64,000 nt of DNA from Candidatus Komeilibacteria bacterium (GCA_048538275.1 JBLYPW010000002.1:2111-66110); one strand, 5' to 3'; shown: positions 11,313-58,048, counted from the stretch's first letter. Translations and numbers: made by a program. Notes: generated by a model from the sequence alone, not told the origin.

Positions 11313-11404
11313 AAAAACATGGTAAAAATCAAGGAAAAATTGAAAAATAAAGCCAACCCCCGGCGTTGGCAACCCCCGGCGTTGAATAAAATGTAATTAT
11401 TTAG
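11296..11404 (+). repeat. Duplicated copy of the 85-bp 5' leader cassette of the gene at 14926. It forms a 25-aa decoy ORF at 11327-11404 (MVKIKEKLKNKANPRRWQPPALNKM) and contains two tandem REP 15-mers at 11354-11385.
   Basis: Near-identical to 14900-14985: ggcgttgaataaaaaaacatggtaaaaatcaaggaaaaattgaaaaataaagccaacccccggcgttggcaacccccggcgttg. Confidence 0.7.
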
Positions 11405-18378: not shown

Positions 18379-18600
18379 TTGTCTCATTCCCAGTTTCTCT
18401 TGATTCCGCCGTGGGGCGGACGAAGTGGAGAAATCTGTATTTGCCACTATAAAATATGTTCTTTTAATATACCCTTTATTGCTATTAGACTTCTCCGCTC
18501 GTCCGCACTTCGTTTGGACATCGGTCGAAGTGACTGTGAGAATATAGAAGATTGCTTCGTCCGCTTGCAGAGGCGGATCAGAGTATAATTCGTATGGTCC
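18379..18600. repeat. MITE-like palindromic element, family 3, copy 1.
   Basis: The core cttctccgctcgtccgcacttcgtttggacatcggtcgaagtgac and its partial inverse ggcggacgaagtggagaa are related to the copies at 33463-33600, 39345-39540 and 46590-46860. The 69-aa ORF at 18379-18588 lies inside it and is probably spurious. Confidence 0.6.
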
Positions 18601-18675
18601 GTTGTATTCGTATCTATATTATTCGTATTGTAGCATCATTAGCATTTTTTCGTATCATTCGTATTAAATTTTCGT

Positions 18676-21600
18676 ATGTTAAATAAGATAAAAAATTTCA
18701 TAATTCATAATTTGCTGACCTCTGTCGTCGTAGCTTTAATAGTAGTTGGTTTTATCGTTAGCATTGGCTTGGCTGTTGGTGGCGGTGGTGGTGGCGGCAC
18801 CATTACTGCTGGTGATATAAATAAAGGCCTTGTTTTTCACGCACCACTTAATAGCGAGAGTGAGAAGGTTGGGAGTGAGTTAGTTACTAATGGCGGCTTT
18901 GATAGTTCTACGGGTTGGGGCGCAGGTACTGCGTGGAGTATAGCTAATGGAGTTGCTAGTTATGATGATAGTGGGACAAGTATTTTATCTCAAAATAATG
19001 TATTTACTGTTGGAAAAAGTTATATAATAAAATTTACTATTTCTAATTCTTCTGGCAATGGGGGGTATATAGCTATTTATAGTGATGCCTCGGGGGTTGT
19101 TGGATATACTTATTATACTGATGGAACTTATGTTGTTCAGGGTACTGCTAATGGTACTCAGTTAAGAATTTATGGTTCTTCTGGTGGTAGCAGTTTTGAC
19201 ATTGATGATGTATCAGTTAAAGAAATTCAAACTGCAGACACTACACCGAATGCGAACCATGGTACTGTTTATGGTGCTACTCAGAATACTGATGATATGA
19301 GTTTTGATGGAACTGATGATTATGTTGATGTTGAAGACAGTAATATTCTTGACATACAGGTTATTGATGGAATTAGTATTAGTGCATGGATAAAACCTGT
19401 TAATACTACAGCTTCTGATACATATTCAAGTACTAATCCACAATATATAGTAATAAAAGGTGCAGCTCCATTAAATTCTAATTATTGGTTTAGAATTTTA
19501 GGACAAAAGTTAAACTTTGGGTGGAGAAATAGTGCCAATGATGGCTATAATACCAAGGATATGGATTCTCATAATTTAACTAATAATGAATGGCAACATG
19601 TTTTAGTTATCCATGATGGTTCTGATATAATATTTTATATTGATGGAGTAGAACAGGCTAGTTCTGTTTCTAGTGGTTCAATGACTGATGAGTCTATTAG
19701 TAATTCAGATTTATTGTATATTGGTGTAGAGTTTGGAAACAGTCAAAGATATTTTAATGGCTCAATCAAAGATTTTCGCATATACAACCGAGCATTAAGT
19801 GCTACTGAAGTTAAAAGTCTTTATGACTTGGGTGGGCGACAAAATCAAATCTCAACAGGTTCTTTATACAAAGGTCTTGTCTTAGATATGCCACTTAATA
19901 GTGAGAGTGAGAAAGTTGGGAGTAATATATTTACCTCCAACAATCCAAATTTTGAGAGTGATACAAATTCCCCTCCTGTATACTGGTATAACACAGGAAC
20001 ACATGTGGCTACAGCAGTAGTTGATGCCACATCCCCCAATGGTTCAAATGTAATGGAAATTGTAGCTAGTGGAACAGGTAGTTTTTCAAGTAATGCTGTA
20101 TGGAATGGTTTCTTTAAATATGGTCGTTTAGTTAGTGGAAAATCATACAGATTAATATTTTATGCCAAGTCTATTTCTGGGTCTACTATTATTAGTGGAA
20201 GGTTCCAAAGCATTTCTATTCCTAATTGGACTATAACTACAGATTGGGAAAGATATGAATATGATTTTATTGGAAATGGTGGCACATATAATGAATTATA
20301 TTTTTTGTCTGCTAGTGGAGCGGCAACTTTTAGAATTGATAATATCTTAGTCAAAGAACTCCAAACAGCTGATACAACACCTAATGCTAACCACGGCACA
20401 GTTTATGGTGCTACACAAAATGCTGATACTATGAGCTTTGATGGTGACGATTATGTAAAGATTGATAATATATTACTAGCAGATAACTTCTCAATAAGTT
20501 TTAATTACACACCTGACACAATTGGCTCTAGTAGGGAAATTATTGATATTGGAAAGAATGCATTTACTTATGAGAATTTTAGATTAGGATTATTGTCAAA
20601 CGGTGGAACAGAAACAGTAATTTCTGATACGTCTTCAACAAGAGCATTTCCAACTTCATTTCCTGCTGGAACTTTTACTTCTGGAATAAAGAAATATATT
20701 GCTGTTACTTATGACGGAACAAATTTTAGAAATTATGCTGACGGAACATTAATCTCAACATCTGCTAATGTATCATTTGCAAGTGAATTGGTTTCTACTT
20801 ATTTATTTACAAGAAATGGGGCTACCAATTTTAATGACGGTAGTCTTCAAGACGTCCGTATCTACAACCGAGCATTATCAGCTGATGAGGTTAAACAACT
20901 TTATGATTTGGGTGGACGACAAAATCAAGTCTCTACTGGTAGTTTGTATAAAGGATTGGTTTTGGATATGCCACTCAATAGTGAGAGTGAGAAGGTTGGG
21001 AGTGAGTTAGTTACTAATGGGGATATTGCAAGTAGTGGAGTTACTGACAACTGGACTGCGGTAAATTCAACATTAACAGCTGAAAATAATGGTTTAAAGG
21101 TTTCTGATAATGGTTCATATTCTTCAGCTTATCAGTTAATAAATACTGTTGTTGGAAAGAAATATAGGTTAACCTTTGATGCTGAAGAAGTTTCTGGTGG
21201 TTTTTTTGTTGTTTATACTAGTAGTACAGCACCAGACGGAACATCTTATGGGGATACAGGTAGATATGTTAGTTCTTCTACAGGAAGACAAGTAATTGAT
21301 TTTATTTCTACAACCACAACTCTTCATATAATTTTTGCTTCACAATCAACAGATTATGCTATTTATAATAATATTTCATTTAGAGAAATCCAAACAGCCG
21401 ATACAACACCAAATGCTAATCACGGCATAGTACATGGGGCTACTGTTGGAAGTGATAGTACAAGTTTTGATGGGACGGATGATTATATACAAATACCCTC
21501 TAATTCTAATTTAGACTTACAATATGTTTCAGTTTCAGCTTGGGTAAAATATGCAACTGGTGGGATTATCATTGTAAATAAATATAATACTCAACCTGGA

Positions 21601-21957
21601 ACTTACACTTTATACAAAGACTCAATCACTAATAAATTCAGTTTTCATGTTAGATTAGATGGAAGTGAAGAAACTCAAAGAAAAGCAGAAGCAAACGATG
21701 TAGTGGATACTGAATGGCACCATGTAGTAGGAACTTATGATGGTTCAATAGTTAAACTATATGTTGATTATATTTTGCAAGATACAATTGATTCTACTAG
21801 TGGAGTTATAGATATTGATAATTCTAATATTTTAGGTATAGGATATAGACCAGTTAATGATGACCAGTTTTGGAATGGTCAAATTAAAGACGTCCGTATC
21901 TACAACCGAGCATTATCTGCCGATGAAGTTAAATTATTATATGATAAAGGGCGTTAA
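18676..21957 (+). CDS. Giant paralog 3 (1,093 aa): TM anchor, Gly-run, CBM4/9-like and LamG-like modules.
   Basis: TM helix LLTSVVVALIVVGFIVSIGLAVGGGGGGG. There are 3 copies of KEIQTADTTPNANHG-T/I-VYGAT linkers. Two near-identical DVRIYNRALSA-x-EVK-x-LYDLGGRQNQ-x-STGSLYKGLVLDMPLNSESEKVGS blocks lie at 19770-19920 and 20851-21000. Confidence 0.8.
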   Translation: MLNKIKNFIIHNLLTSVVVALIVVGFIVSIGLAVGGGGGGGTITAGDINKGLVFHAPLNSESEKVGSELVTNGGFDSSTGWGAGTAWSIANGVASYDDSGTSILSQNNVFTVGKSYIIKFTISNSSGNGGYIAIYSDASGVVGYTYYTDGTYVVQGTANGTQLRIYGSSGGSSFDIDDVSVKEIQTADTTPNANHGTVYGATQNTDDMSFDGTDDYVDVEDSNILDIQVIDGISISAWIKPVNTTASDTYSSTNPQYIVIKGAAPLNSNYWFRILGQKLNFGWRNSANDGYNTKDMDSHNLTNNEWQHVLVIHDGSDIIFYIDGVEQASSVSSGSMTDESISNSDLLYIGVEFGNSQRYFNGSIKDFRIYNRALSATEVKSLYDLGGRQNQISTGSLYKGLVLDMPLNSESEKVGSNIFTSNNPNFESDTNSPPVYWYNTGTHVATAVVDATSPNGSNVMEIVASGTGSFSSNAVWNGFFKYGRLVSGKSYRLIFYAKSISGSTIISGRFQSISIPNWTITTDWERYEYDFIGNGGTYNELYFLSASGAATFRIDNILVKELQTADTTPNANHGTVYGATQNADTMSFDGDDYVKIDNILLADNFSISFNYTPDTIGSSREIIDIGKNAFTYENFRLGLLSNGGTETVISDTSSTRAFPTSFPAGTFTSGIKKYIAVTYDGTNFRNYADGTLISTSANVSFASELVSTYLFTRNGATNFNDGSLQDVRIYNRALSADEVKQLYDLGGRQNQVSTGSLYKGLVLDMPLNSESEKVGSELVTNGDIASSGVTDNWTAVNSTLTAENNGLKVSDNGSYSSAYQLINTVVGKKYRLTFDAEEVSGGFFVVYTSSTAPDGTSYGDTGRYVSSSTGRQVIDFISTTTTLHIIFASQSTDYAIYNNISFREIQTADTTPNANHGIVHGATVGSDSTSFDGTDDYIQIPSNSNLDLQYVSVSAWVKYATGGIIIVNKYNTQPGTYTLYKDSITNKFSFHVRLDGSEETQRKAEANDVVDTEWHHVVGTYDGSIVKLYVDYILQDTIDSTSGVIDIDNSNILGIGYRPVNDDQFWNGQIKDVRIYNRALSADEVKLLYDKGR

Positions 21958-26860: not shown

Positions 26861-26864
26861 AATC

Positions 26865-26912
26865 CAACCCCCGGCGTTGCCAACGCCGGGGGTTGACAAC
26901 ACCCGGTGTTGG
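26865..26912. repeat. REP family 1 hairpin (caacccccggcgttg CCAACGCCGGGGGTTG inverted pair) plus the palindrome acaacacccggtgttgg, between paralog 4 and RAYT-A.
   Basis: Perfect inverted repeat of the 15-mer. Second palindrome at 26896-26912. Confidence 0.85.
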
Positions 26913-26962
26913 CGGTAAATTATAGAAAACAGGGTCTATCTAACGATTAACCCTGTATTTTT

Positions 26963-27538
26963 ATGCCTAAAATTGAGCGAAATATTGAACCCGGCTCTAT
27001 TCATCATGTCTATAATCGGTCGGTAGAGAAAAGAACCATATTTTTTATTGACAGAGATTATCAATGGTTTTTAGAAAAAATAGCGTTTTATAAAGTTAAA
27101 TATAAGGTAAAAATCTTAGCTTTTGCGCTTTTGCCTAACCATTGGCATTTGTTAGTGCAGGAACAGGAAGTAGTCCAACCCCCGGCGTTGGCAACGCCGG
27201 GGGTTGTTAGAATGATTGGAGATTTATGCAATGCCTATGTCAAGCGCTTCAACATAGCTCATGATCGCTCTGGACCCTTATTCCAGGGCAGATTTAAGTC
27301 AAAAGTGGTTGAAGATGAGCATTATTTGCAGAATCTTATTAATTATATCAATCTCAATCCAGTAAAACATAAAATAGTAAAGAATATTAAAGACTGGGAT
27401 TATACGTCACATTGGCACTACTTGGAGAAAGGGAAATTTGCTTTGGTTGATAAGAGTGAGTTTATAGATTTTGCGGTTTATAAGGCTGGCGTGGTTGATT
27501 ATTTACGAAAATTTGAGAATATTGAGGAAGAATTTTAA
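26963..27538 (+). CDS. IS200-like HuH tyrosine transposase, REP-associated (RAYT-A, 191 aa). It carries an in-frame REP hairpin insertion.
   Basis: N-terminus MPKIERNIEPGSIHHVYNR. HuH motif LLPNHWHLLV. C-terminal Y motif HYLQNLINYINLNPVKHKIV. REP caacccccggcgttggcaacgccgggggttg at 27177-27207 is translated as QPPALATPGVV. REP hairpins flank the gene at 26865-26895 and 27542-27572. Confidence 0.8.
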   Translation: MPKIERNIEPGSIHHVYNRSVEKRTIFFIDRDYQWFLEKIAFYKVKYKVKILAFALLPNHWHLLVQEQEVVQPPALATPGVVRMIGDLCNAYVKRFNIAHDRSGPLFQGRFKSKVVEDEHYLQNLINYINLNPVKHKIVKNIKDWDYTSHWHYLEKGKFALVDKSEFIDFAVYKAGVVDYLRKFENIEEEF

Positions 27539-27541
27539 ATC

Positions 27542-27572
27542 CAACCCCCGGCGTTGCCAACGCCGGGGGTTG
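27542..27572. repeat. REP family 1 hairpin immediately 3' of RAYT-A.
   Basis: caacccccggcgttgccaacgccgggggttg, a perfect inverted pair. Confidence 0.85.
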
Positions 27573-27673
27573 GATTACACAAAATCGTATTTTTCTGTTA
27601 TAATTTAATCGTAAAATTACAAAAAAAGAGGGCCATGTTAAAAGGTTTTTTGACGTGGCTTTTTATAATATAG

Positions 27674-30600
27674 ATGTTGAATATAAAGGAAAAATTTAAA
27701 ATCAACCCCCGGCGTTGGCAACGCCGGGGGTTGGCAACACCCGGTGTTGGAATCCGCATCGCTTCTATTCTTTTTATTGCTATCATTATAGTAGCTGGTT
27801 TAATTTATATATTCAATAAACCTCAATCAGTAGAAGCAACTTGGTGGAACCCCACCTGGAGTTATAGACAAAGCATTGCTGTCACCAATGGCTCAGGCGG
27901 TACTTTAACAGATTTTCAAGTTGAGATATTGCAGAATGTTGATTTGAGTAGCCTTAATACAGCCGGCAAGCTGCAAGCAGATTTGGCTGATTTACGTTTT
28001 ACCGATATAAATCATAGAGTTCTGCCTTATTGGATAGAAGATAATACTATCTCTTCTGTAAATGCTTGGATTAAAATACCATCTATTCCTACAACCGGTA
28101 CTACTATTTATATGTATTATGGGAATTCATCGGCTAGTGATGCGCAGGATGGATTTAATACATTTTTGGCTTTTGATGATTTTGAAGACGGGGATATGAG
28201 TACATGGGAGCATATAGATGCTTGGGGAGATAATCTTGGCACATGGACAGAGTCTGGTGGCGTTATGCGTGCTGATTGTAATACTTTATGGTGCCATGAA
28301 ACTGCCTGGCAACATGTAAATTTTCAAACCGATAATGTTGCTTTAGCTGCCAAACATCGTTGTTTGGGTAATAATTCTGACGGTGAAGGTGGGATAGGTA
28401 TTTCTTTTACAGGCGGATGGGAAAATTATAGCACACAACAAACAATGCTTATCCGTAATGATAATCAAGATATCTGGGCAAGTGGAGGCACCCCTAGTAC
28501 CACCGTGTCGTTTACTAATACATGTAATACATGGTATAAAACCGAAATTAGAGATATTGCTGGCTCTAATGCAACTTTATGGGTGGATGATGTACAAAAA
28601 CATGCCACCACTAATAGTGTTACTACTGTAAACGGTAGGCCAGCTTTATCCCAGTATAAGGGTGATATTGAATACGACTGGGTATATTATAGAAAATTAG
28701 CATCCACTCAGCCTACAGCCGGCAGTCCAGCCACTGAAGAAAACGCCCCCGGCCCAGTGGGTTATTGGAATTTTAATGAGGGATTTGGCACAACAGCTTA
28801 TGATAGTACAGGTTATGGTAATGATGGGACAATTTCAGGGGCAACCTGGGTGCAGAATGGTAAAAGTGGTAGAGCTTTGAGTTTTAACGGGAGTAGTGAT
28901 TATATTATAACTAATAATGATATTGGAATATCAGGAACAGATGAAAGGACAGTTAGTTTATGGGTAAAAACTACATCAGCAAATGTTACTACAAATTCTA
29001 TTATTTTTGGAATGGGCACCGCTGCTGCTAATAATTTATTTGCCATGAGAACTGATTCTACTACTGATACTTGGAGATTTACAGATGCATCAGTTGCAAG
29101 AGAAACAAATGTCTCAACAACTGGTCAGTGGCAACACATAGTAACTATACTTGATTCTAGTCAACAATTAAGCGTTTATATTGATGGAATTATAACAGAT
29201 GTAAATAATATTGATTTGTCATCACAAGATACTACTAATGCTCCTTTCTATATTGGTTCAAGTGTTAATAATACTTTGTATTTTGATGGTCTCATAGACG
29301 AAGTACGCATCTACGACCGTGCCTTGTCAGCCAATGAAGTGAAACAGCTTTATAATCAAAATGCCGGCAGCTTTAATGTCGGGCAGTCTGGTATATCCAC
29401 TTCTTGCGCTGATCAATTGGCAAAAAATCCCGGCTCTAAGTCTGGTGTTTATACTATTGATCCTGGCTATGGAGTTGATCCTTTTGATGTTTATTGTGAT
29501 ATGGAGACTGACGGTGGGGGGTGGACTATGGTGGCATCAAATCATTCTAGTAGTACTTTAATACCCTCTGGCACTGGCAGAAATTCTGCTGAGTATGAGT
29601 TGGATAGGAATGGCAGTTATACTGCGTTAGGGACACCTTCTCCAAATACGGATTATATTATTGGCGCAGCTATTAATATATTGGAATGGGATGAAGCAAG
29701 GATTACTATGTTTGGGTTTGATTCAACTAGTTCATCGTATGTTTATCCCACAAATTTGGGAGATTATGCAGATGTTAAATGGGATGTTCCTGGTTCTGAT
29801 GCCGGACGGTTGGATCAGGCCGTTGCGGCAGCTAGTGTGTCCATATTTAGGAATAATAATTTTGCAAGTTTTCATCCAAGTGTTGCTTATTTCTATGTAG
29901 ATGGAGTACATCATGACTATATGCCAGATAGTGTATATGGCGCTAATGCAAATCAGGCAACAGTTGGAGGTGTTGGTAGAAGTGGCACGACTGTTACCGG
30001 TACATACTTTGGGCATGGTGTAACTGAGGGAAGTTTTGAGGGTTCATATGGCCCAGGAAACACGGCGAGTAAAAATGCCTCTGGGTATGTTACGTGGGTT
30101 AGAAGTAATACTGTGACTAGTTCATCTGGCGTTGCTCTAGACCTCCCCTTTGAAGCCGTATCCGGCTCTACGACTTATGATATTTCTGGTAATGAAAATA
30201 ATGGCACCATTACCGGCGCTACTCACAAAACTTCAGCCAATTGTAAGGTGGGGCGGTGTTTTGAGTTTGATGGGAGTGGTGATACTATAACCATAAGTGA
30301 TAGCACCAGTATTAATGCTATAGGGCAAGCTATGACGCTATCTGCCTGGGTTAAACCATCAGCATTTACAACTAGTTATAGGTCGGGGATTATCACAAGA
30401 CGTAATGGCAATGCAGGTATTGGATTTTATTTGGCCGGTGATTTAGATCCTGCTACATCAGGAACAATGGAGGCTATGATTGGGGGCGGGGCAAATGTTG
30501 CAGCTAATACAGCCTTACCACTAGATGAGTGGTCTTATACAACTATGGTCGCAAGCGGCGACAGTATTTCTTTTTATTTGAATGGAGTAGATGATGGTGG

Positions 30601-33412
30601 CGGCGTTTTGACCGGTTGGACCTGGGATGATGGTGTGGCTGTTCAGATTGGTGGAGTTACTGGTACAGCTGGTTATACAATATTTGGATTTATTGATGAG
30701 CCTAAAATATTCAACCGCGCTCTTACGCAAAGAGAAATTATGATGGAAATGAACGCTGGTAAACATCAGCCAGTATTAGATTTAGGTTTTGATGAAGGTG
30801 GAGGCAGTACAGCTTATGATAAGTCAGTTTTAACTAATAATGGTAGTATTTCTGGAGCTGATTATAAAACTCCGGAAAATTGTGTAAGTGGAAGTTGTTT
30901 GGATTTTAATGGTAGTAGTGATCATGTACGGATTACAGATAGCAGTTCTGGTGATGATTTGGATTTTGGTAGTGACAGCTTTACCGTTTCAGCTTGGGCT
31001 AATATTGATGAAGGAACAACTGCGCGTGGCACAGTACTATCCAAATCTAATGATGTGACTATGCCGGATACAGTTGGCTATTGGTTGATGGGACCCTATA
31101 CTGGTTGGTCTAGCACCTTTGCTTTTGCTACCAACGATGGTTCAGGTAGCACATTTTATGTTAGTGATGGTGATACTAGCTTGATAGATGGTAAGTGGCA
31201 TCACGTTGGTTTGATTTTAAATAGAGATACGGGCATTATGACGCTTTATGAAGATGGTCAGTCAGTTGACACGGCTGATATTAGTTCTTTGGGTAGTATT
31301 TCTAATAGTTATAATTTTGGTGTAGGTAGTTATCAAGGTGGTGGCAGTAATGTGATCAATGGCAAAATAGATGAAGTTAAAATGTATAATTATGCTTTAA
31401 CAGAAGCAGAATTAAAACAAGAATACACTCAATCCAAAGGTCAGTTTGGGCGGACTAGTGCGGTGGGAGAAAAAACCACGCCCGGAGCTTCTTGCGCGGA
31501 TATTTTAGCGAAAAATTCTCAGGTCGCAGATGGATATTATTGGATAGATCCTAATGGCGGATCACAATCAGACGCTTTTAAGGTTTATTGTGATATGACC
31601 ACTAATGGCGGGGGCTGGACATTGATTGAGTCATTTTCTTTAGCTAATAAAGCAAGTTTTACATCATTTTTGGGCAACGTGTCTATAAATGAGGATGATC
31701 CGACTCAAATAGATAATTATAGATTATCTAAGACTAGAATGGATAATTTAAATGGCGTTTCAACACAATGGCGCTCAACCTGTCAAATGAATCAGGATCC
31801 TACTAGAGATTATGCAATATCTAATAAATCAGATACAGATATAATGACATTTGCAATTACTGATAGTTGCCGGGTTATGGTTGATGTAAATGTCCGTGGT
31901 TATAATTGTCAAAATTGTCAGGCTAAGTGGTGGGGTTATGCCGCAGGTAGTAAGCATACCCACTTAGATTCAAGCATTAATAATGCTGTGTGTGGTGTAG
32001 GATCGCTTGACTCAGACGCTGGCTCTGTAAGTTCAGAAGATAATTGGGGTTATTATGCTTATACAAATCCTGAATTTCAATGTACTGCTTCTAGCGATTC
32101 AACAACAAATTGGTGGATGGGAGGTCTTGGCAGTAGTATTTCTACCGGCCCTGTTCTTGACATGACTTTTGATAAATATGTTGGTGGAGTTTATTTGGAT
32201 GAGAGTGGCAACGGACATAATACTACTACTATTAGCAGTGATCCTGAATGGAAAACAACAGTCAATTGTAAGTCGGGCAGATGTGTAGATTTTGATGATA
32301 GTTCGGATTGGGTTAGGATTGCAGCAAATTCAGTATTTGATTTTACAGGCGACTATACTTTAGAGGCGTGGATTAAGCCAAATTCTGTCGTGGGTTATCG
32401 TCACGGCATTATGGGTAAATATTCTAGCGATGGTTGGGGTTTGAATTTGCATGAAGATAAGGTGAATTTTGGTAGTCATACTTGTAGTAACTTTAGTGGT
32501 TCAACTAGTTTGCAAGCAGGTGCTTGGTATCATGTGGTGGGTATTTATAAAGAAACAGGTGATGATGAACTTTATGTGAATAGTCGTTTAGATGGAACTG
32601 GTAATTTAACCGACGGGAATTGTAATGCTGATACTAGCGATGTTGTTATTGGTACTTATAGAACTTCAACAACAGAAGAGTTTAATGGGATCATTGATCA
32701 GGTAAAAATATACGATAGAGCTTTAACACAGAGAGAAATATCTATGAACTATAATGGCGGTCAACCGATTGGTTGGTGGCGACTGGATGAGGGGGCGGAT
32801 AATTTATGTTCTGACGGCAAAGACGCTTGTGATAGTTCCGGTGAAGGGAATAATGGGACAGAAAGTGGAAATATTACTTGGATAACAGATACTTCTTTGT
32901 GTAAACAGGGTGGTTGTGCTAGTTTTGACGGGAGCGGGGATTATATACAAACTAGTTTATCCCAAACTTTTAATTCAACGACTATATCTTTCTGGATGGA
33001 TTGGGATAATTATGGAACAGATACTATCGATTTTATAGGAGAAAGTGAGGATAGTAGTAAAGTAATGGTTCACACCGGCGGTGGATCAGGGATAAATGGT
33101 ATAAGGTTTCATTTTGCTTCAAGCGCTTCAGGGTTTGATACAATAGGTATAATCGGCTCTGGTTGGAATCATTATTTAGTCACTTATGATAATGGGAGTA
33201 TAAAAATTTATAAAAACGGAGTTTTGGAAAATTCCGCAACGGTGACAGATGAGTCTGCTACTATAAGTTCTTGGGATATTGGCAGAAGAAGTAATAGTGA
33301 TGGTTATCATTTTAATGGTTCTTTAGATGATATCCGCATCTACAACTACGCCCTCACCGATAAACAGGTTAAAGAAGTATATAATCAAGGGTTGATTCAT
33401 TTTACCCCGTAA
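27674..33412 (+). CDS. Giant paralog 5 (1,912 aa): REP-encoded leader, TM anchor, DUF2341-like domain, LamG-like modules and two fibrinogen-C-terminal-like domains.
   Basis: Leader MLNIKEKFKINPRRWQRRGLATPGVG is encoded by the REP inverted pair plus palindrome at 27705-27752. TM helix IASILFIAIIIVAGLIYIF. DUF2341-like block TWWNPTWSYRQSIAVTN...GKLQADLADLRFTD...IYMYYGNSSA. Fibrinogen-like motifs CADQLAKNPGSKSGVYTIDPGYGVDPFDVYCDMETDGGGWTMVA at ~29395-29560 and CADILAKNSQVADGYYWIDPNGG..FKVYCDMTTNGGGWTLIE at ~31480-31640. LamG ends DEVRIYDRALSANEV, DEVKMYNYALTEAEL, DDIRIYNYALTDKQV. Confidence 0.8.
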   Translation: MLNIKEKFKINPRRWQRRGLATPGVGIRIASILFIAIIIVAGLIYIFNKPQSVEATWWNPTWSYRQSIAVTNGSGGTLTDFQVEILQNVDLSSLNTAGKLQADLADLRFTDINHRVLPYWIEDNTISSVNAWIKIPSIPTTGTTIYMYYGNSSASDAQDGFNTFLAFDDFEDGDMSTWEHIDAWGDNLGTWTESGGVMRADCNTLWCHETAWQHVNFQTDNVALAAKHRCLGNNSDGEGGIGISFTGGWENYSTQQTMLIRNDNQDIWASGGTPSTTVSFTNTCNTWYKTEIRDIAGSNATLWVDDVQKHATTNSVTTVNGRPALSQYKGDIEYDWVYYRKLASTQPTAGSPATEENAPGPVGYWNFNEGFGTTAYDSTGYGNDGTISGATWVQNGKSGRALSFNGSSDYIITNNDIGISGTDERTVSLWVKTTSANVTTNSIIFGMGTAAANNLFAMRTDSTTDTWRFTDASVARETNVSTTGQWQHIVTILDSSQQLSVYIDGIITDVNNIDLSSQDTTNAPFYIGSSVNNTLYFDGLIDEVRIYDRALSANEVKQLYNQNAGSFNVGQSGISTSCADQLAKNPGSKSGVYTIDPGYGVDPFDVYCDMETDGGGWTMVASNHSSSTLIPSGTGRNSAEYELDRNGSYTALGTPSPNTDYIIGAAINILEWDEARITMFGFDSTSSSYVYPTNLGDYADVKWDVPGSDAGRLDQAVAAASVSIFRNNNFASFHPSVAYFYVDGVHHDYMPDSVYGANANQATVGGVGRSGTTVTGTYFGHGVTEGSFEGSYGPGNTASKNASGYVTWVRSNTVTSSSGVALDLPFEAVSGSTTYDISGNENNGTITGATHKTSANCKVGRCFEFDGSGDTITISDSTSINAIGQAMTLSAWVKPSAFTTSYRSGIITRRNGNAGIGFYLAGDLDPATSGTMEAMIGGGANVAANTALPLDEWSYTTMVASGDSISFYLNGVDDGGGVLTGWTWDDGVAVQIGGVTGTAGYTIFGFIDEPKIFNRALTQREIMMEMNAGKHQPVLDLGFDEGGGSTAYDKSVLTNNGSISGADYKTPENCVSGSCLDFNGSSDHVRITDSSSGDDLDFGSDSFTVSAWANIDEGTTARGTVLSKSNDVTMPDTVGYWLMGPYTGWSSTFAFATNDGSGSTFYVSDGDTSLIDGKWHHVGLILNRDTGIMTLYEDGQSVDTADISSLGSISNSYNFGVGSYQGGGSNVINGKIDEVKMYNYALTEAELKQEYTQSKGQFGRTSAVGEKTTPGASCADILAKNSQVADGYYWIDPNGGSQSDAFKVYCDMTTNGGGWTLIESFSLANKASFTSFLGNVSINEDDPTQIDNYRLSKTRMDNLNGVSTQWRSTCQMNQDPTRDYAISNKSDTDIMTFAITDSCRVMVDVNVRGYNCQNCQAKWWGYAAGSKHTHLDSSINNAVCGVGSLDSDAGSVSSEDNWGYYAYTNPEFQCTASSDSTTNWWMGGLGSSISTGPVLDMTFDKYVGGVYLDESGNGHNTTTISSDPEWKTTVNCKSGRCVDFDDSSDWVRIAANSVFDFTGDYTLEAWIKPNSVVGYRHGIMGKYSSDGWGLNLHEDKVNFGSHTCSNFSGSTSLQAGAWYHVVGIYKETGDDELYVNSRLDGTGNLTDGNCNADTSDVVIGTYRTSTTEEFNGIIDQVKIYDRALTQREISMNYNGGQPIGWWRLDEGADNLCSDGKDACDSSGEGNNGTESGNITWITDTSLCKQGGCASFDGSGDYIQTSLSQTFNSTTISFWMDWDNYGTDTIDFIGESEDSSKVMVHTGGGSGINGIRFHFASSASGFDTIGIIGSGWNHYLVTYDNGSIKIYKNGVLENSATVTDESATISSWDIGRRSNSDGYHFNGSLDDIRIYNYALTDKQVKEVYNQGLIHFTP

Positions 33413-33434
33413 AGTAACGAAGTTACTAACGGGG
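33405..33434. repeat. Palindrome family 2 (ccccgtaaagtaacgaagttactaacgggg), overlapping the stop codon of paralog 5.
   Basis: Nested inverted repeat with inner stem gtaacgaagttac. Related copies at 39306-39336 and 44821-44935. Confidence 0.75.
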
Positions 33435-33462
33435 TGAGGGATAATGGTTATAACATATCAAT

Positions 33463-33600
33463 ATACAATACCCCGTCACTTCGACCGATGTCCAAACGCA
33501 GTGCGGACGAGTGGAGAAGTCTATAGAGCAGCCGTGTGATGAGAGACTTCTCCGCTCGCTTTCGCTCGGTCGAAGTGAAGAGGAGTATGGTTACTAGGGG
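33463..33600. repeat. MITE-like palindromic element, family 3, copy 2.
   Basis: ccccgtcacttcgaccgatgtccaaacgcagtgcggacgagtggagaagtctatagagcagccgtgtgatgagagacttctccgctcgctttcgctcggtcgaagtga is a long imperfect palindrome. Confidence 0.7.
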
Positions 33601-33686
33601 CGGTAGAATTAAAAAGCCGTTCGGAGGAAGCTCCAGACACGTCTGACGTGTCCAGCTTCCGACGAACGTGTGGATGAGGCAAAATT

Positions 33687-33806
33687 ATGCTAAAAATATT
33701 AAAAAACTTAATAAAAACGAGCCGGTGGCGCCACCGGCCTCCGGCTCCCGGCCTCCGGCTCCCAGCCTCCGGCCTTAGGCTCGGAGAGCGTTGGAATTAG
33801 TAAATC
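33687..33806. repeat. About 120-bp GC-rich insertion, relative to the paralogous leader at 39540-39590. It has 9-bp direct repeats ATGCTAAAA at both ends and internal cctccggctcc tandem units.
   Basis: Upstream regions 33586-33686 and 39516-39587 align. The second copy runs straight into ATGCTAAAATTAGCC. The first copy duplicates ATGCTAAAA at 33687 and 33807, with ...gccggtggcgccaccggcctccggctcccggcctccggctcccagcctccggcc... in between. Confidence 0.6.
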
Positions 33807-36800
33807 ATGCTAAAATTAGCCAAAAAATTTAAAATCAACCCCCAGCGTTGGCAACCCCCGGCGTTGGGAATATTAATAACAGCGATTATTATTGTATTTG
33901 CCGTGGTTTATTTTCTTCGAACACCCGGTGTTGTACAGGCAGAATGGTGGAATGAGGGCTGGCATTATAGAGATTCATATCCTATTACATACTCATCATC
34001 TGGTTCGGAATTAACAGAATATCAAGTCTTGGTGGAGGATCTGGATACTGCTACTCTAATAGCGGCTGGCAAGATGCAGTCTGATTGCGCGGATATTAGG
34101 TTTACAGATGTTAATAGTACAGTATTGAATTATTCTATTGTCGGCGCTACTTGTAATACCAGCAATACTAAAATATGGGTGAAGATGGAAAGCATCCCGG
34201 CAGGAGGAACAACTTTGTATTTATATTATGGCAATCCAAGTGCTAGTTTTTATCAAAGTGAAGAGAACACATTTAGTTATAGTACAGAAAAAACAGTGGG
34301 ATATGTTTTAAATGACGGGAGTACAGCTTTTGATTTAATTAGTTTGGCAGATGGTAATTCTATAACACACAATAGTACGACTTTAACTTTGAATAAAGGT
34401 GAAAGTAGCGCCCTTACTACCTCTACTTATTTACCAGTAACTGCCAAAAAATTATTTAATATGTCCACTGAGGAGTATGATACTATTGTACCGATTGGTT
34501 GGGCTGGCACGGAGTTTGTTTACCAGAATCGCAACGGGACTTATGAAACAGATTTTGTTATGGTCAGTCCGTGGGGTACGGCTACCGTACAAATATATAT
34601 TGATGGTGTGCAATGTGGTGCTGATAGAACAGTAACTAGCTCTGGTTTAAAGGTGACAGACTGTGGCGGCGCTGCTTCTGATGTGTTTAGGATAGTAAGT
34701 GATATACCTATCATTGTAAATAGGTCTAGCAGTGTAAATGATCCCCACCCTATGCATCCGGCTGATTTAGGACCTTGGTATGGTTGGGATTCAAGCGGCG
34801 ATTATATTGCCGCTGGCCCTAGTGGAGCCAGTTATCAGTGGATAGATAGTGGCATGAGCTCTGTTTCCTCAAGTAGTTTAGGTGCAAATGCGGGGACTAC
34901 TTTAGAAGCTGGTGGTGGCAGTTATTATTCTGGTGATACTATTAAGGTTTGGTCAACAGATTATGTTATGGGCGCGTCTACAGCTGGTGATGCTGACGGA
35001 GGGGATGCTACTACTTATTTGCCAAACTGGGAATTTGGCACCATAACCGGGTCGCCTTATGCAACGGATTTTGTGGCAGTACTATCTGATCAGGCAGTCA
35101 CTTGTACAACTTATAATAATAGCGGTGCCACCGTAAATACACAGCAATTATCTAGTACCAATACACAGGTTTATGAACTGGGTGGAACAAACTTTGGTAT
35201 AGGAAGTACTAGTGAATATATTAGTGGTGCTTGGTATGTAGAATGTGATGGGCCAGCTATGTTTGTATCACAAAATGTTGATGATGAACAAAATATGTGG
35301 TCTTGGCCTATGATGCGGCAGTTTTCTTATCCTACACCAGCGGTTGGTTCGGCTAGTGGTGAGGAAAAAGGAGAAGCACCAATATTGTATTGGAAGTTTG
35401 ATGAAGGTGTAGATAATTCTTGTTCTGGTGGCGGCGATGTGTGTGATTCCACAACCACCGGCGATCACAGGAACTTAGTGGGAGAACCAGATTGGCAGAG
35501 TGAAGACATGTGCGTGTCTGGTAAATGTTTATACTTTGACGGTACTAATGATTATATAGATTTAGGTTTTGGCAGCGGTCGTAATTTAGCTACCGATCCA
35601 TTATCAATAAGTATGTGGGTTAGACCAACTAGTTCTAGTGAAGATAATATGTACATAGCAACAGTGAATGGTACCAATCAGAGATTTTATTTTGCTATAC
35701 AAAATGGTTTATGGGATATGGGAATTCAAAATTCAACTTGGAGTCAAGGGGGTGCTGTTACTAGTGCAGACCTTAACGAATGGACGCATATAGCTATTGT
35801 CGCTAATGGTTCAGCAGTTAGGTTATATGTTAATGGTAATTATAGTTTTCAGAAAACATATACTTCGTATGCATTAGCTGGTAATATTGCCATTGCCAGC
35901 CAAGGCCCTGCAGGTGGTTATAAATGGCGAGGCTCCATAGATGATGTTAAAATTTATAATTATGCTCGTACAGACGATCAGATTAAAGCCGACTACTTAG
36001 CCGGCTTATCTGGCTCTTCGTCTGGTGTTGGCGCGTCTTTGGGCAGTAGGCAACAAGATCAGAGTGAAGGGCTGGTTGGTTATTGGCAGATGGATGATGC
36101 GGGTGTAGATGCTGAAGGTGAAACCATCAGTGATAGTTCCGGTAACGGCAACAGCGGCACGCTTTATGGTGATAATGCTACCGGTGATAATGGTACTGGT
36201 ATGGATTGTACCGTTACCGGTAAATATGGTACGGGTTGTAGTTTTGACGGGGTGGATGATTATGTTCTGAGTAGTTCCAATATCCCCGCTATGTCAAATT
36301 TTACGATATCAGTATGGCTACAGTGGGATGATTATGGCACTTCAAATACTCAATTTGTCACTGGAGGTGCTCAGGAGCAGTTTGAAATTCAAACCGGTGG
36401 AGGCAGCGGAACAAACGGTTTACGTTTTATACCCAATACTCACGACGCATCTACGTTAGATGTTGCTAATGCAATTCCAGATGCAAACTGGCATCATTAT
36501 GCAGTTGTATATACCAACAATGATCAAGTACTTGCATATAGAGACGGAGACGAAATTGGAAATAAGAGTCACTCGGTAAGTAGTAGTACTACAGCAAGTC
36601 AATTCAATATTGGAAGAAGAAGCAATAATAGTTATTTTTTTGATGGCAAAATAGATAATGTAAAAATATACAATACCGCCCGTACAGCCGAGCAGATAAT
36701 GAGGGATTATAAAACTGGACCATCGCCGGTGGCTTATTATGATTTTGAAGAACAATCCACTAGCATAGCCTATGACAGATCAGGCACTGGTGTTAATTTA

Positions 36801-39272: not shown

Positions 39273-39305
39273 TTATTTAATAAGCAGGTGATGAACCCCG
39301 TAAAG

Positions 39306-39540
39306 TAACGAAGTTACTAATGGGGGTGAGGGATAATGGTCATAACAAATCAATATACAATACTCCGTCACTTCGACCGATGTCCAAACGCAGTGCGGAC
39401 GAGTGGAGAAGTCTATAGAGTAGCCGTGTGATGAGAGACTTCTCCACTCGCTTTCGCTCGATCGAAGTGACGGATGGGTTATGATGACTCGGTCGAAGTG
39501 ACGAGGAGTATGGTTACTAGGGGTGGTAGAATTAAAAAGC
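39306..39540. repeat. Palindrome family 2 copy (39306-39336) followed by MITE-like family 3 copy 3 (39345-39540).
   Basis: ccccgtaaagtaacgaagttactaatggggg, then ccgtcacttcgaccgatgtccaaacgcagtgcggacgagtggagaagtctatagagtagccgtgtgatgagagacttctccactcgctttcgctcgatcgaagtgac. Confidence 0.7.
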
Positions 39541-39587
39541 CGTTCGGAGGAAGCTGCTTCCGACGAACGTGTTGATGAGGTAAAATT

Positions 39588-44798: not shown

Positions 44799-44820
44799 TT
44801 ATTTAATAAGTAGGTGATGA

Positions 44821-44935
44821 ATCCTGTAAAGTAGCGAAGCTACTAACGGGATGAACCCTGTAAAGCAGTGAAGCTACTAACGGGGTGAACCCTGTAAAGT
44901 AGTGAAGCTACTAACAGGGTGAACCACGGCGCGGT
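44821..44935. repeat. Three tandem copies of a ~36-bp unit from palindrome family 2 (ccctgtaaagtagtgaagctactaacggggtgaa), immediately 3' of the minus-strand RAYT-B.
   Basis: Visible direct repeats. Each carries the inner hairpin gtagYgaagctac. Confidence 0.8.
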
Positions 44936-44941
44936 TTCTTT

Positions 44942-45619
44942 TTAAAATTTATTATTAATATTATTTCTATCTTGCGCCCAATTTGCAGGATTATTTTTGA
45001 TATATTCCCTGATTCTATCTAAATCATTATCATCTCTAATAATGTGTTCGTAATAATTGGATTGCCAGGCAAACCCCTGTAAACCAATATCATGAATGCG
45101 TTTGGTACATGCCGATTTGAATGAACGAACAATATTACCCAACGACGTTTTATTTAACATGGGATTGTATTTTCCGGTAATGCCACCCGCCATTTTGGCA
45201 CCCACCGCCATTTTGGCACCCACCGCCGTTTTGGCACCCACCGCCATTTTGGCACCCACCGCCATTTTGGTACCCACCGCCGTAGAGACGCGATTAATCG
45301 CGTCTCTACGGCGGTGGGTTGGTTCATTCAAATCGGCATTAATGACAAATATGACATGAATATGGTTAGGCATGACCATATATTCATCCAATGAAATATT
45401 ATTAAAATGTTTATTCATATTTGATAAATTTTGTTTTATTATCTCACCGTATTTATTTAATATCATTTGATCATGAATTACCTGACCAAAATACTCAATT
45501 CTATTTTTAGTACAAATGGTCACAAAATAATTTCCCGGTTGAGAATAATCATAATCTAATATCCTATTGGATGTGAGCCTATATTTTTCTTGGTATAATT
45601 TTGGGTTATATTGGGGCAT
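44942..45619 (-). CDS. RAYT-B (225 aa), an IS200-like/RAYT-type Y1 HuH transposase on the minus strand. An 18-bp microsatellite (AVGAKM x5) and a 44-bp perfect palindrome are inserted in frame.
   Basis: HuH motif MVMPNHIHVIF. C-terminal block GFAWQSNYYEHIIRDDNDLDRIREYIKNNPANW, which I recall as typical of TnpA_REP. Tandem ggcacccaccgccatttt units at ~45183-45290. Palindrome ccaccgccgtagagacgcgattaatcgcgtctctacggcggtgg at ~45282-45328. Confidence 0.8.
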   Translation of the reverse strand: MPQYNPKLYQEKYRLTSNRILDYDYSQPGNYFVTICTKNRIEYFGQVIHDQMILNKYGEIIKQNLSNMNKHFNNISLDEYMVMPNHIHVIFVINADLNEPTHRRRDAINRVSTAVGTKMAVGAKMAVGAKTAVGAKMAVGAKMAGGITGKYNPMLNKTSLGNIVRSFKSACTKRIHDIGLQGFAWQSNYYEHIIRDDNDLDRIREYIKNNPANWAQDRNNINNKF

Positions 45620-45855
45620 AATAAAAAAGGGTTAGTATTGAAACCGACCCTGTTTACCCCGTTTAACGTGGTTTGCCACATTTGATGAGGTTTGTCTATT
45701 GTGATTTATAGGTTTAGTTTATACTTTCAGTTATTTTTGTCAAAGCTTTTACTCGCCGGGGGTTGGAACATTATCCCCAGTTGAAGGTTTTATAAAATTG
45801 TTGTATAATACAGCTACAAATTGAGGGCTCAATTTATTATTAAAAAATTGTTAAT

Positions 45856-46398
45856 ATGACAGAAGATATCAAAAAACCGGATATGGCCGCTGCTTCTGGG
45901 CAGATGGAAAAGCCTAAGAAGAAAGCCGCCAAAGGTGGTATTGTAGCCAAGATTATAATGATCTTGATAGTGGTTGTTATTATTTTAGGCGGACTCTATT
46001 TTGTAGATAAATATACCAGTATTAATATCTTTGGTGTGCAATCAGCCGATGATAAAGTTACGGTAACCGATTGGCAGGCAGTATTTTTGAGCAATGGCCA
46101 AGTTTATTTTGGTAAAATAGTTAAACAAAATGATGATACATTAATATTACGTAATATTTATTATCTTCAGGTAGTACAACAGCCATTGCAAGCCACTCAA
46201 ACCGGCGAAGCTGTTGACACGCAAAATCAGCAACAGCAGAACCAATTATCTTTGGTAAAGCTAGGTAATGAATTGCACGGACCGCAAGATGAAATGCATA
46301 TTAATCCCAGTCAGGTTTTATTTACAGAACAGTTAAAGTCTGATTCCAAAGTAGTTGACGCTATCAATCGTTATTTGCAAGATCAGCAGAGCCAATAA
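45856..46398 (+). CDS. Small membrane-anchored protein (180 aa), paralog of 10803-11312.
   Basis: TM helix IIMILIVVVIILGGLYFV. Shared block WQAVFLSNGQVYFGK...LILRNIYYLQ...VKLGNELHGPQDEM. A candidate promoter TTGAAG-17-TATAAT lies at 45781-45809. Confidence 0.6.
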   Translation: MTEDIKKPDMAAASGQMEKPKKKAAKGGIVAKIIMILIVVVIILGGLYFVDKYTSINIFGVQSADDKVTVTDWQAVFLSNGQVYFGKIVKQNDDTLILRNIYYLQVVQQPLQATQTGEAVDTQNQQQQNQLSLVKLGNELHGPQDEMHINPSQVLFTEQLKSDSKVVDAINRYLQDQQSQ

Positions 46399-46416
46399 TA
46401 CGAATTTATAGATTTT

Positions 46417-46452
46417 TAAAACAACTCCTGCATAGGAGTTGTTTTAATTTTA
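46417..46452 (+). terminator. Rho-independent terminator.
   Basis: aaaacaactcctgcataggagttgtttt is a perfect 10-bp stem with a 4-nt loop, followed by a T-rich tract, 20 nt after the stop at 46398. Confidence 0.7.
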
Positions 46453-46589
46453 GGAAAGTTTATCACGAATATAGCAAATAATACCAATTATAGAAATAGA
46501 TAAAACTTATAATCTCTGATCACGGCGATTTCACGTATCATAATCATTGTGATTCGCACTATTTATAATCCTTATTAACCCCGTATGAC

Positions 46590-46860
46590 GGGGTTCCATC
46601 CGCTCACCATAACCCCTCTGTCACTTCGACTGAGTCATCATAACCACTCTGTCACTTTGACTAAGTCATCATAACTCATCTATCCCTTCGACCGAGTCAT
46701 CACACCCCCTCCGTCATCTCGACCGAGTCATCATACCCCCTCCGTCACTTCGACCGAGCGAAAGCGAGCGGAGAAGTCTCTCATCACGCGGCTACACTAT
46801 AGACTTCTCCGCTCGTCCGCACTGCGTTTGGACATCGGTCGAAGTGACGGGTAAGTATAT
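46590..46860. repeat. MITE-like family 3 copy 4, preceded by about five tandem ~30-bp units (ctctgtcacttcgacYgagtcatcataacc).
   Basis: Tandem units at 46598-46760. The palindromic core cgagcggagaagtctctcatcacgcggctacactatagacttctccgctcgtccgcactgcgtttggacatcggtcgaagtgac is at 46760-46853. Confidence 0.7.
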
Positions 46861-57501: not shown

Positions 57502-57537
57502 ATTCAACCTTCAAGGTTTAGACCTTGAAGGTTGAAT
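57502..57537. repeat. Palindrome family 4 (caaccttcaaggtttagaccttgaaggttg), 5' flank of RAYT-C.
   Basis: Near-perfect inverted repeat. A second copy lies at 58011-58048. Confidence 0.85.
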
Positions 57538-57606: not shown

Positions 57607-58023
57607 ATGCCTAATGTAGCACGTAATTTTTTTCCTGGTAGCATTCACCATGTTTATAATAGGGCTAATGCAGGATTGATTATTTTTAGAAATGACAGGG
57701 ATTATGCTTATTTTTTGCATAGAATTAGTGTTTATAGGAAAAGAACCAGAGTTCATATCATCACTCAAGCCGTGTTACCAAACCATTGGCATTTTCTTTT
57801 GCAAGAGCCTAATGATGTGATAGGCAATAATAAATTACCCGCTATTTCAAAATTTGTGTCCTTATTATCTAATTCTTATACTAGATATTTTCAGTTAAAA
57901 TATGGTTATTTGGGGAGAATATTCCAGGGGCAGTTTAAGTCTAAGTGGGTTGAAGATGATGATTATTATGCTTATTTAATTGATTATATAACTCATAATA
58001 AGTTGCATCACCGCCAACCTTGA
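57607..58023 (+). CDS. RAYT-C, an IS200-like HuH transposase (about 138 aa from the ATG at 57607; the ORF track begins at the TTG at 57592). The 3' palindrome possibly truncates its C-terminus.
   Basis: MPNVARNFFPGSIHHVYNRA parallels the RAYT-A N-terminus. HuH motif VLPNHWHFLLQE. C-terminal YAYLIDYITHN. The stop is created inside the family 4 palindrome. Confidence 0.75.
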   Translation: MPNVARNFFPGSIHHVYNRANAGLIIFRNDRDYAYFLHRISVYRKRTRVHIITQAVLPNHWHFLLQEPNDVIGNNKLPAISKFVSLLSNSYTRYFQLKYGYLGRIFQGQFKSKWVEDDDYYAYLIDYITHNKLHHRQP

Positions 58024-58048
58024 AGGTCTAGACCTTCAAGGTTGGCGG
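58011..58048. repeat. Palindrome family 4 copy (ccgccaaccttgaaggtctagaccttcaaggttggcgg), 3' flank of RAYT-C.
   Basis: Perfect 38-bp palindrome overlapping the last codons of RAYT-C. Confidence 0.85.

Follow-up and report, generated by a model that had tools for sequence, protein, structure and literature searches.

SsnA of Neisseria, a small GIY-YIG protein, is a site-specific nuclease of single-stranded DNA (ssDNA): it binds the hairpin of the NTS repeat, on one strand only, cuts a few nucleotides upstream, and is inactive on double-stranded DNA and on RNA (Chenal 2025, PMC11893778). What it needs most is a GTC before the palindrome and a C directly after it. The same study found at least one Ssn-related motif (SRM) in 71% of the regions around ssn homologue genes, and described the Neisseria repeats as clustering near surface-protein genes and lowering the transformation frequency of DNA that carries them. 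A second body of work concerns the CGTC-tagged superfamily of repetitive extragenic palindromes (REPs), which includes dRS3 of Neisseria and RPE-4/6 of Rickettsia (Di Nocera, De Gregorio and Rocco 2013, PMC3733652). These repeats are unusually alike across phyla, are often dimeric and come without a dedicated transposase. Here we analyse a 64-kb stretch of Candidatus Komeilibacteria DNA (GCA_048538275.1, JBLYPW010000002.1:2111-66110), called the window below, which covers only part of the genome and holds four copies of a palindromic element in intergenic spacers, most of them beside giant genes. Judging from sequence, we estimate at roughly 75% the probability that these elements are diverged SRM/NTS-like doublets of the CGTC-tagged REP superfamily, that is, recognition sites of Ssn ssDNA nucleases in a gene-less form. 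On this reading they are neither a new kind of element nor a gene regulator.

Hairpin units and small GIY-YIG genes

The palindromic repeat at the four loci is real and beyond chance. The string GTCACTTCGACCGA, with up to two mismatches, is found 11 times in the window against 0.07 times expected in shuffles, and all 11 matches lie inside four loci, which we name A to D in window order. An initial annotation had listed four copies of an element resembling a MITE, one of the miniature inverted-repeat transposable elements. All are present at about the positions given there, and their corrected extents are 18391-18534 (A), 33475-33579 (B), 39367-39502 (C) and 46604-46848 (D). Wider and looser regular expressions found no further copy in the window outside these loci. 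The elements measure 105-245 bp, have inverted termini and contain no open reading frame (ORF).

Each arm is a hairpin unit by itself, so the element is a doublet of inverted units of 36-48 nt. Read from its 5' end, a unit opens with a (C/T)GTC tag and a 5-bp stem in which A-NNN-C pairs with G-N'N'N'-T. A tandem G·A/A·G mismatch comes next, then a C-G (or G-C) pair, one bulged pyrimidine, another C-G pair and the apex, after which the stem returns and a CT tail ends the unit. The apex is either a mini-loop (GNA or GAAA) or a variable hairpin of greater length. The window has a long unit of 48 nt with apex TGTCCAAACGCAGTGCGGAC and a short unit of 36 nt with apex GCGAAAGC, both within the 20-50 nt of a hairpin-forming semi-palindrome. 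The doublet is a heterodimer of one long and one short unit joined tail to tail with the tags outward, which puts one tagged unit on each strand. The 21-nt spacer between the units is conserved in B, C and D, and measures 49 nt in A.

Both features on which SsnA most depends are kept in the intact units of the window. Their heads read (C/T/A)GTCAC or GTCAT, in agreement with a directional tag of the form HGTCWY, and all units finish in ...GAAGT-C-T or ...GAAAT-C-T, with a C directly after the stem. The exceptions at the tag are the right unit of B (TTC), one half-unit of D (ATCCC) and the decayed left end of A. In 152 units from other organisms, GTC is preceded by T in 89 cases and by C in 50; the TCT tail was fixed in the search patterns, so its conservation at other loci is partly by construction. 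As in the CGTC REPs, an unpaired CGTC (or TGTC/CCTC) tag is accompanied by a short unpaired tail at the other end, which here is CT(N) and not CCA.

The hairpin of the unit is backed by strong covariation. Among the units that did not trigger the selection of a locus, head and tail triplets are complementary in 97 out of 110, with nine triplet types represented. An alignment of 24 minimal 27-nt units has 98% of its cells paired; shuffles reach 80%, and sliding the partner columns gives 54% at most. Of the seven pairs, five vary on both sides, and a one-sided (G·T) change occurs in none of the 168 cells. At the level of the whole element, the 105-nt core common to B, C and D forms a single long, imperfect hairpin; its z-scores run from -5.4 to -7.6 as DNA and from -5.5 to -7.5 as RNA (200 shuffles, none of which folds as well). 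The shared hairpin core described by the initial annotation holds over its whole length in B, C and D, and for the long arm alone in A.

The unit is not confined to this locus, a point on which the initial annotation had made its own reading depend. An exact pattern of the two conserved boxes retrieved 15 stretches from 8 metagenome-assembled genomes (MAGs) among species-representative genomes, labelled Syntrophaceae, Christensenella (with many copies), Roseivirgaceae, Bacteroidales, Flavobacteriales (two), Pirellulales and Patescibacteria, and a Y/R-relaxed scan of metagenomes found the unit in at least 120 contigs. On these matches the unit is present in at least five phyla. Viral contigs gave a single match, and a phage-borne unit was ruled out on that count. 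Elsewhere, tags-outward doublets with spacers of 8-63 nt are the commonest layout (49, against 16 with tags inward and 10 in tandem), and 115 of 254 units are singletons. With genes called crudely from ORFs, most units fall between genes and have no bias in orientation relative to them (44 on the same strand, 46 on the opposite one). A target-site duplication is missing in 45 of 53 doublets, and those of the remainder, 2-3 nt long, are at chance level. Nothing in the window reached the gathering threshold of Rfam; at relaxed E-values, only miRNA-hairpin matches fell on the element (E 0.03-1) and none on the units of eight loci. A full-text literature search with sequence strings returned irrelevant primer matches only.

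What ties these units to a nuclease comes from the loci of other organisms. A single-domain GIY-YIG gene of about 96 codons lies near units in seven loci selected for the units (L038, L051, L076, L114, L009, L045 and L003). The usual layout is a unit on the plus strand, 26-90 nt, the gene, 5-65 nt and a unit on the minus strand, with the tags outward; L003 has the opposite arrangement. These genes were found through ORFs enclosed by inverted units, an earlier clustering restricted to ORFs of at least 100 aa having excluded 96-aa genes. When loci were selected independently, by protein, tags-outward bracketing was present in all three gene families (L140, L150, L151). Four proteins from these loci were compared with an SsnA homologue of N. 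gonorrhoeae whose gene sits among CGTCATTCCCGCGCAGGCGGGAATCTAG repeats, an arrangement that PMC11893778 reports as NTS-ssnA-NTS; all four show 44-48% identity to it (E 1e-21 to 1e-26). Next to the homologues of Azospirillum, Planktothrix, Spirosoma and Novosphingobium there are likewise hairpins or doublets, CGTC-type or GTCA-tagged. No NCBIfam model exists for these GIY-YIG proteins, and PDB gives weak UPF0213 matches only. Units of this class flanking Ssn-family genes were seen at other organisms' loci and not in the window; their linkage to ssn, together with the NTS-like architecture elsewhere, suggests that the window elements are an SRM-type cassette minus its gene.

Two side observations concern the Christensenella MAG. 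At L004 4970-7304, a gene for a 381-aa reverse transcriptase (Pfam RVT_1, E 2e-17) has unit clusters on both sides. At L010, L012 and L015, units stand at a fixed position beside paralogous ORFs, one of which, in L015, reaches 1619 aa; this echoes the placement of the window elements beside giant paralogs.

The four copies and their surroundings

Copy A is the most altered. Its left unit (18391-18436, plus strand) is decayed: it has lost the tag and 5' half-stem, with the terminal GTCAC box, and retains the apical hairpin TCCGCCGTGGGGCGGA and the tail GGAGAAATCT, as judged by eye against metagenome units of the form GTCATCTCGACCGAAGTCCGCCAAAGGCGGACGGAGTGGAGAGATCT. An AT-rich spacer of about 49-50 nt (18437-18486), unrelated to that of the other copies, separates it from the right unit (18487-18534, minus strand), a long variant GTCACTTCGACCGA-TGTCCAAACGAAGTGCGGAC-GAGCGGAGAAGTCT that is 96% identical to B (alignments I3 and I4) and is the one arm that A shares with the other copies.

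In B, a long unit with tag CGTC (33475-33522, plus strand) is followed by the 21-nt spacer ATAGAGCAGCCGTGTGATGAG (33523-33543) and by a short unit (33544-33579, minus strand) with apical mini-hairpin GCGAAAGC, whose GTC is mutated to TTC. C repeats this design with a long unit at 39367-39414 (plus strand), a spacer at 39415-39435 and a short unit at 39436-39471 (minus strand), then adds one 31-nt terminal half-unit that B lacks (39472-39502, minus strand), made of a 16-nt flank-like spacer and CTCGGTCGAAGTGAC. In D the whole doublet is inverted relative to B and C (inverted alignments I2, 117 nt at 93%, and I1, 157 nt at 89%): the short unit (46744-46779, plus strand) precedes a spacer (46780-46800) that is the reverse complement of the B/C spacer with three substitutions, and the long unit (46801-46848, minus strand) closes the element.

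Upstream of its complete short unit, D carries about 4.5 terminal half-units of 31 nt (46604-46743, plus strand), each formed of the tag, the 5' half-stem GTCACTTCGACCGAG and a 16-nt spacer. A repeat search returned the array as 46604-46758, with period 31, 5.0 copies and 80% matches, in line with the roughly five tandem 30-bp subunits already noticed in this copy. By eye, the 16 nt resemble the outer flank of B and C, which suggests that the arrays are tandem duplications of the doublet's terminal 31 nt. Half-unit arrays built of tag, 5' half-stem and an array-specific spacer (period 23-37 nt, 3-5 copies), and ending in one complete unit, recur in the unrelated contigs L039, L065, L073, L099 and L116, apparently in L013, and also in L160. 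One of them adjoins a Planktothrix ssn gene.

Upstream of both B and C, at a distance of about 40 nt, there is a family 2 palindrome (33405-33430 and 39296-39321, respectively), as the initial annotation had remarked. From that palindrome to the next start codon the two intergenic cassettes are about 97% identical, against about 55% in the adjoining coding DNA. By this comparison B and C are one cassette and not independent events, and the count of four copies therefore overstates the number of independent events. The suggestion that such sites are composite insertion hotspots keeps some plausibility, the spacers being mosaics of at least five palindrome families, but it rests on this single cassette. 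D stands apart, upstream of a MerR-like ORF and ileS and not of a LamG paralog, a correction to the original description, which placed the copies in 5' untranslated regions (UTRs) of paralogs 3, 6 and 7.

Comparison with relatives gives these positions some history. The isoleucyl-tRNA synthetase of the window is 67-70% identical to its best matches, and the lineage is nearest to Candidatus Komeilibacteria. Three syntenic Komeilibacteria loci (L137, L138 and L139) keep the gene order: LamG/DUF2341 giants, a 176-aa gene, MerR, an ORF of about 53 aa (not called in L139), ileS and recO. The window's repeat families are absent from all three, save one weak family 1-like 15-mer in L138. In the syntenic loci, a MerR operator-like palindrome comes no more than about 15 nt after the terminator of the 176-aa gene, whereas in the window about 400 nt, including D, lie between the two. 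D is 93% identical to B, in an unrelated context. Taken with the 97% identity of the B/C cassette and the absence from syntenic loci, this shows recent lineage-specific copying, and it does not reveal a conserved regulatory feature. That the elements were placed at unrelated sites is supported by these alignments.

The same spacers and genes carry several other palindromes. The family 1 16-mer CAACCCCCGGCGTTGG has 25 copies in the window. It is in frame in six LamG/DUF2341 giants, no further in than about codon 30 (at 11354, 14961, 21970, 27703, 33836 and 39617), where it encodes ...NPRRWQPPAL..., just before the membrane anchor; it is absent from L137 and L139, and its match in L138 has two mismatches. 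The family 2 palindrome at 33405-33430 overlaps the end of ORF 27674-33412 and supplies its TAA stop. At 33688-33815, 9-nt direct repeats ATGCTAAAA enclose a 119-nt insertion in which the palindrome GCCGGTGGCGCCACCGGC is accompanied by CCGGCCTCCGGCTC, present three times. The insertion gives the paralog a second start codon, and the upstream one of the two begins a short, dead-end ORF. Paralog start codons are also closely preceded by a fifth hairpin family, GCCGTTCGGAGGAAGC...GCTTCCGACGAACG (about 33610-33665 and 39535-39570), and the copy next to B has a 22-nt palindrome, CCAGACACGTCTGACGTGTCCA, nested in its loop, which makes these spacers mosaics of nested palindromes. Six copies of TTCGTAT occur within about 90 nt upstream of ORF 18676-21957 (18590-18680).

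The window also contains three genes (26963-27538, 44942-45619 and 57607-58023) of the type of REP-associated tyrosine transposases (RAYTs), with Y1_Tnp or REP_Tyr_transpos domains. The first matches Pfam Y1_Tnp and NCBIfam REP_Tyr_transpos (E 8e-20) and has the palindrome CAACCCCCGGCGTTG/CAACGCCGGGGGTTG on both sides (26865-26911 and 27542-27572) as well as in frame inside it (27176-27206); from this arrangement, gene and palindromes are a REPtron in a genome of the candidate phyla radiation (CPR). The second, on the minus strand, has motifs NHIH, WQ and YIKNNP that fit subclass 2.4 of Quentin 2018 (PMC6006769). Its stop codon is followed by a tandem of three 34-nt palindromes of family 2 (44816-44925), and an in-frame 18-nt repeat of 5.3 copies with a palindrome (45187-45320) separates its HUH and Y motifs. 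The third is 45% identical to the first and is bracketed by a fourth palindrome family, CAACCTTCAAGGTTTAGACCTTGAAGGTTG (57504-57535 and 58015-58046), which apparently cuts off the C-terminus. REPs of RAYT subclass 2.6 (supplement of Quentin 2018) are unrelated to our units. In the closest syntenic relative, a 191-aa ORF with a faint Y1_Tnp match (L138 5974-6549) comes directly after the LamG giants, and by sequence RAYT-like genes may be recurrent at this locus.

Origin and activity of the doublets

How could a gene-less doublet have reached these spacers? We propose that the window doublets are the non-autonomous form of a unit-ssn-unit cassette, and that the organism would encode an Ssn elsewhere in its genome. 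When DNA passes through a single-stranded stage, in replication, repair or transformation, Ssn would bind the hairpin and nick a few nucleotides 5' of the tag, as its Neisseria counterpart does. The doublets may have reached new intergenic sites through a kind of copying without target-site duplication, one that would also tend to duplicate the terminal half-unit, the half-unit arrays being a possible footprint of this copying. Any effect on the adjacent giant surface-protein genes would then come from the cleavage and recombination of ssDNA, and from neither promoters nor RNA structure. Whether the elements presently act as sites for an Ssn encoded in trans is, by analogy with Neisseria, a matter on which we would put even odds.

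Several points weigh against our proposal. There is no ssn gene or remnant within the 64-kb window, and only four unit loci are seen in it. The published SRM pattern, HGTCWYN(0-2)YYVSBRHN(0-5)WNVSBRGN(0-2)RNCYNB, has no match in the window (0.2 expected by shuffle) and matches 1 of 315 units, although it does match canonical NTS-like units in the same loci; since the pattern misses the units, the class lies outside what was tested biochemically. The apical hairpin of the long unit is far bigger than the NTS loop, and the likeness of B and C could be explained, on their sequences, by gene conversion. Finally, the three RAYT-type genes could in principle act on these hairpins. Two candidates met in the search for ssn were set aside: a weak tblastn match of SsnA (58862-59047, E 0.014) falls inside an unrelated 402-aa ORF, and a small GIY-YIG gene lying at the end of locus L138, from the relative, resembles UPF0213 more than Ssn when inspected by eye and has no unit upstream.

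The absence of ssn from the window, the decay of one arm of A, the mutated tag of B and the single 97%-identical cassette formed by B and C would all suit inert relics, which segmental duplication or gene conversion alone would have carried between the spacers of the paralogs, with neither a dedicated enzyme nor present activity. We regard such an origin as doubtful: D is found away from the paralog array, in DNA missing from relatives, at 93% identity to B, the tag and post-stem C are otherwise intact, and half-unit arrays of the same design recur beside ssn genes elsewhere. Mobilisation by a RAYT of the HUH/Y1 type, one of the three in the window or another elsewhere, would make the elements doublets of the REPIN (REP doublet forming hairpins) or BIME (bacterial interspersed mosaic element) type, and fits the doublet architecture, the missing target-site duplication and the ssDNA-hairpin logic that they have in common with REPINs; the second RAYT gene is, moreover, 1 kb from D. 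It nonetheless appears improbable to us, as the palindromes around each RAYT of the window belong to a different family, these units flank none of the three, and the unit tag is CGTC and not GT[AG]G. In about 1 Mb around units elsewhere, a search by phmmer and by regular expression for HUH/Y motifs found no RAYT, whereas Ssn genes were found there repeatedly, and no tyrosine transposase gene is flanked by CGTC repeats in the survey of PMC3733652.

The initial annotation had suggested a promoter or RNA-structure function in the 5' UTRs, and a cis-acting RNA element (a 5'-UTR or 3'-end hairpin, terminator or mRNA stabiliser) or a promoter for the LamG paralogs is indeed what elements in unidirectional intergenic spacers, with RNA folds as stable as those given above, might suggest. 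REPs can affect transcripts (PMC3733652), and one inter-arm position pairs as U·G (B), U-A (C) and C-G (D). We nonetheless hold this function to be quite unlikely: the elements are missing from three syntenic loci with the same genes, they occur in both orientations in the window and at other loci (44:46), D is not beside a paralog, and no Rfam family matches. Nor does a U-tract follow the hairpin, promoter-like sites are at background level (59 found, 51.9 expected) without an excess of terminators, and the one-sided G·T intermediates expected of RNA pairing number 0 in 168 cells, while SsnA of Neisseria acts on ssDNA only (PMC11893778). The MITE-like character proposed for the element fares better, in part. 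The copies are short, non-coding, palindromic, several in number and intergenic, with inverted termini; they look like a gene-less derivative of a gene-carrying cassette, and D sits in DNA that relatives lack. A classical MITE, however, would be a deletion derivative of an insertion sequence with a DDE transposase, moved by cut-and-paste through its terminal inverted repeats, and this is very improbable and largely refuted. The doublets lack target-site duplications in 45 of 53 cases, no transposase recurs near units, the arms are covarying, self-folding hairpins with a one-sided tag that also occur as singletons, and the gene found between such arms elsewhere is a 96-aa GIY-YIG nuclease, Ssn, and not a transposase. 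By eye we also rejected a hammerhead ribozyme, a CRISPR array (the spacers of the array are near-identical to one another), an integron attC site (neither GTTRRRY / RYYYAAC motifs nor an integrase) and an intrinsic terminator (no T-run).

A bolder version of the Ssn proposal is unlikely, in our view, but has consequences of its own. The doublets would belong to a large, uncatalogued Ssn/SRM branch that the published motif misses, defined by a G·A-interrupted stem and a modular apex, with unit-ssn-unit as its minimal mobile element. Equally tentatively, gene-less doublets would be the 'MITEs' of this branch and half-unit arrays the footprints of copying, for instance by a nick 5' of the tag followed by a template switch at the hairpin. 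The branch would be abundant in Bacteroidota, Planctomycetota, Desulfobacterota, Bacillota and CPR bacteria. If all this were true, the doublets would steer ssDNA cleavage and recombination, and hence the diversification of giant LamG paralogs, in an ultra-small CPR genome.

Significance and comparison with described systems

If the doublets are gene-less Ssn sites, an apparent 'MITE' of a CPR genome is assigned to a system described only in 2025, that of small GIY-YIG ssDNA nucleases and their hairpin motifs. The published motif definition would then miss a widespread class of such sites, and the Ssn/SRM system would extend, in a form that current motifs overlook, into CPR bacteria and several other phyla. 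This bears on the question of what spreads CGTC-type REPs, and it would allow the mining of new pairs of Ssn and site as ssDNA tools. For annotation, the units yield many spurious small ORFs and break assemblies. At the locus itself, the idea of a regulatory RNA or promoter is removed, and attention shifts to a possible control of recombination at the level of ssDNA beside hypervariable surface-protein genes, which would parallel the NTS clusters in Neisseria.

Like bacterial MITEs such as Correia/NEMIS, RUP and BOX (with its variable boxB), the window element is small, non-coding and repeated, with inverted ends, and like some of them it has a variable number of internal or terminal modules. 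It differs from them in having neither a target-site duplication nor a parental DDE insertion sequence, and in that its arms are autonomous hairpins. There is also a resemblance to BIMEs and REPIN-RAYT systems (Bertels and Rainey 2011; Nunvar 2010; Quentin 2018): these too are non-autonomous inverted hairpin doublets without target-site duplication, with a single-copy partner nuclease that recognises ssDNA hairpins through a 5' guide tag, and with several palindrome families arranged as mosaics within the same spacers. However, the probable partner of the window class is a GIY-YIG protein and not an HUH/Y1 transposase, the tag is CGTC and not GT[AG]G, and the sequence is conserved across phyla, whereas a REPIN is species-specific.

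With the CGTC REPs of PMC3733652 the units have in common the CGTC/TGTC terminal tag, the A-T first pair, the short unpaired tail, the frequency of dimers, often heterodimers, with spacers of 20-100 nt, a mostly intergenic position between unidirectional or convergent genes, an unusual likeness of sequence between phyla, and the lack of an attached transposase gene. The stem and loop set them apart. The published repeats have perfect stems of 8-9 bp, loops of 4-5 nt and a CCA tail, whereas the stems of the window class are imperfect (5 bp, a tandem G·A and two pairs round a bulge), the apex ranges from a 3-nt loop to a hairpin of about 35 nt, and the tail is CT.

The comparison with SRM/NTS-SsnA (PMC11893778) is the closest. 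There are differences here as well: the stem of the window class is broken by tandem G·A mismatches and a bulged pyrimidine, its apex is modular, from a GNA triloop to hairpins of 20-35 nt, the window has gene-less doublets only, with half-unit arrays, and the host belongs to a Patescibacteria (CPR) lineage, which is absent from the main text of that study. In both, however, a (C/T)GTC 5' tag precedes a hairpin whose first pair is A-T and which is followed by a C; the motif is directional; motif, gene and motif follow one another around GIY-YIG genes of about 95 aa, in other bacteria in the case of the window class; and the repeats are multi-copy, mostly intergenic and clustered beside surface-protein genes.

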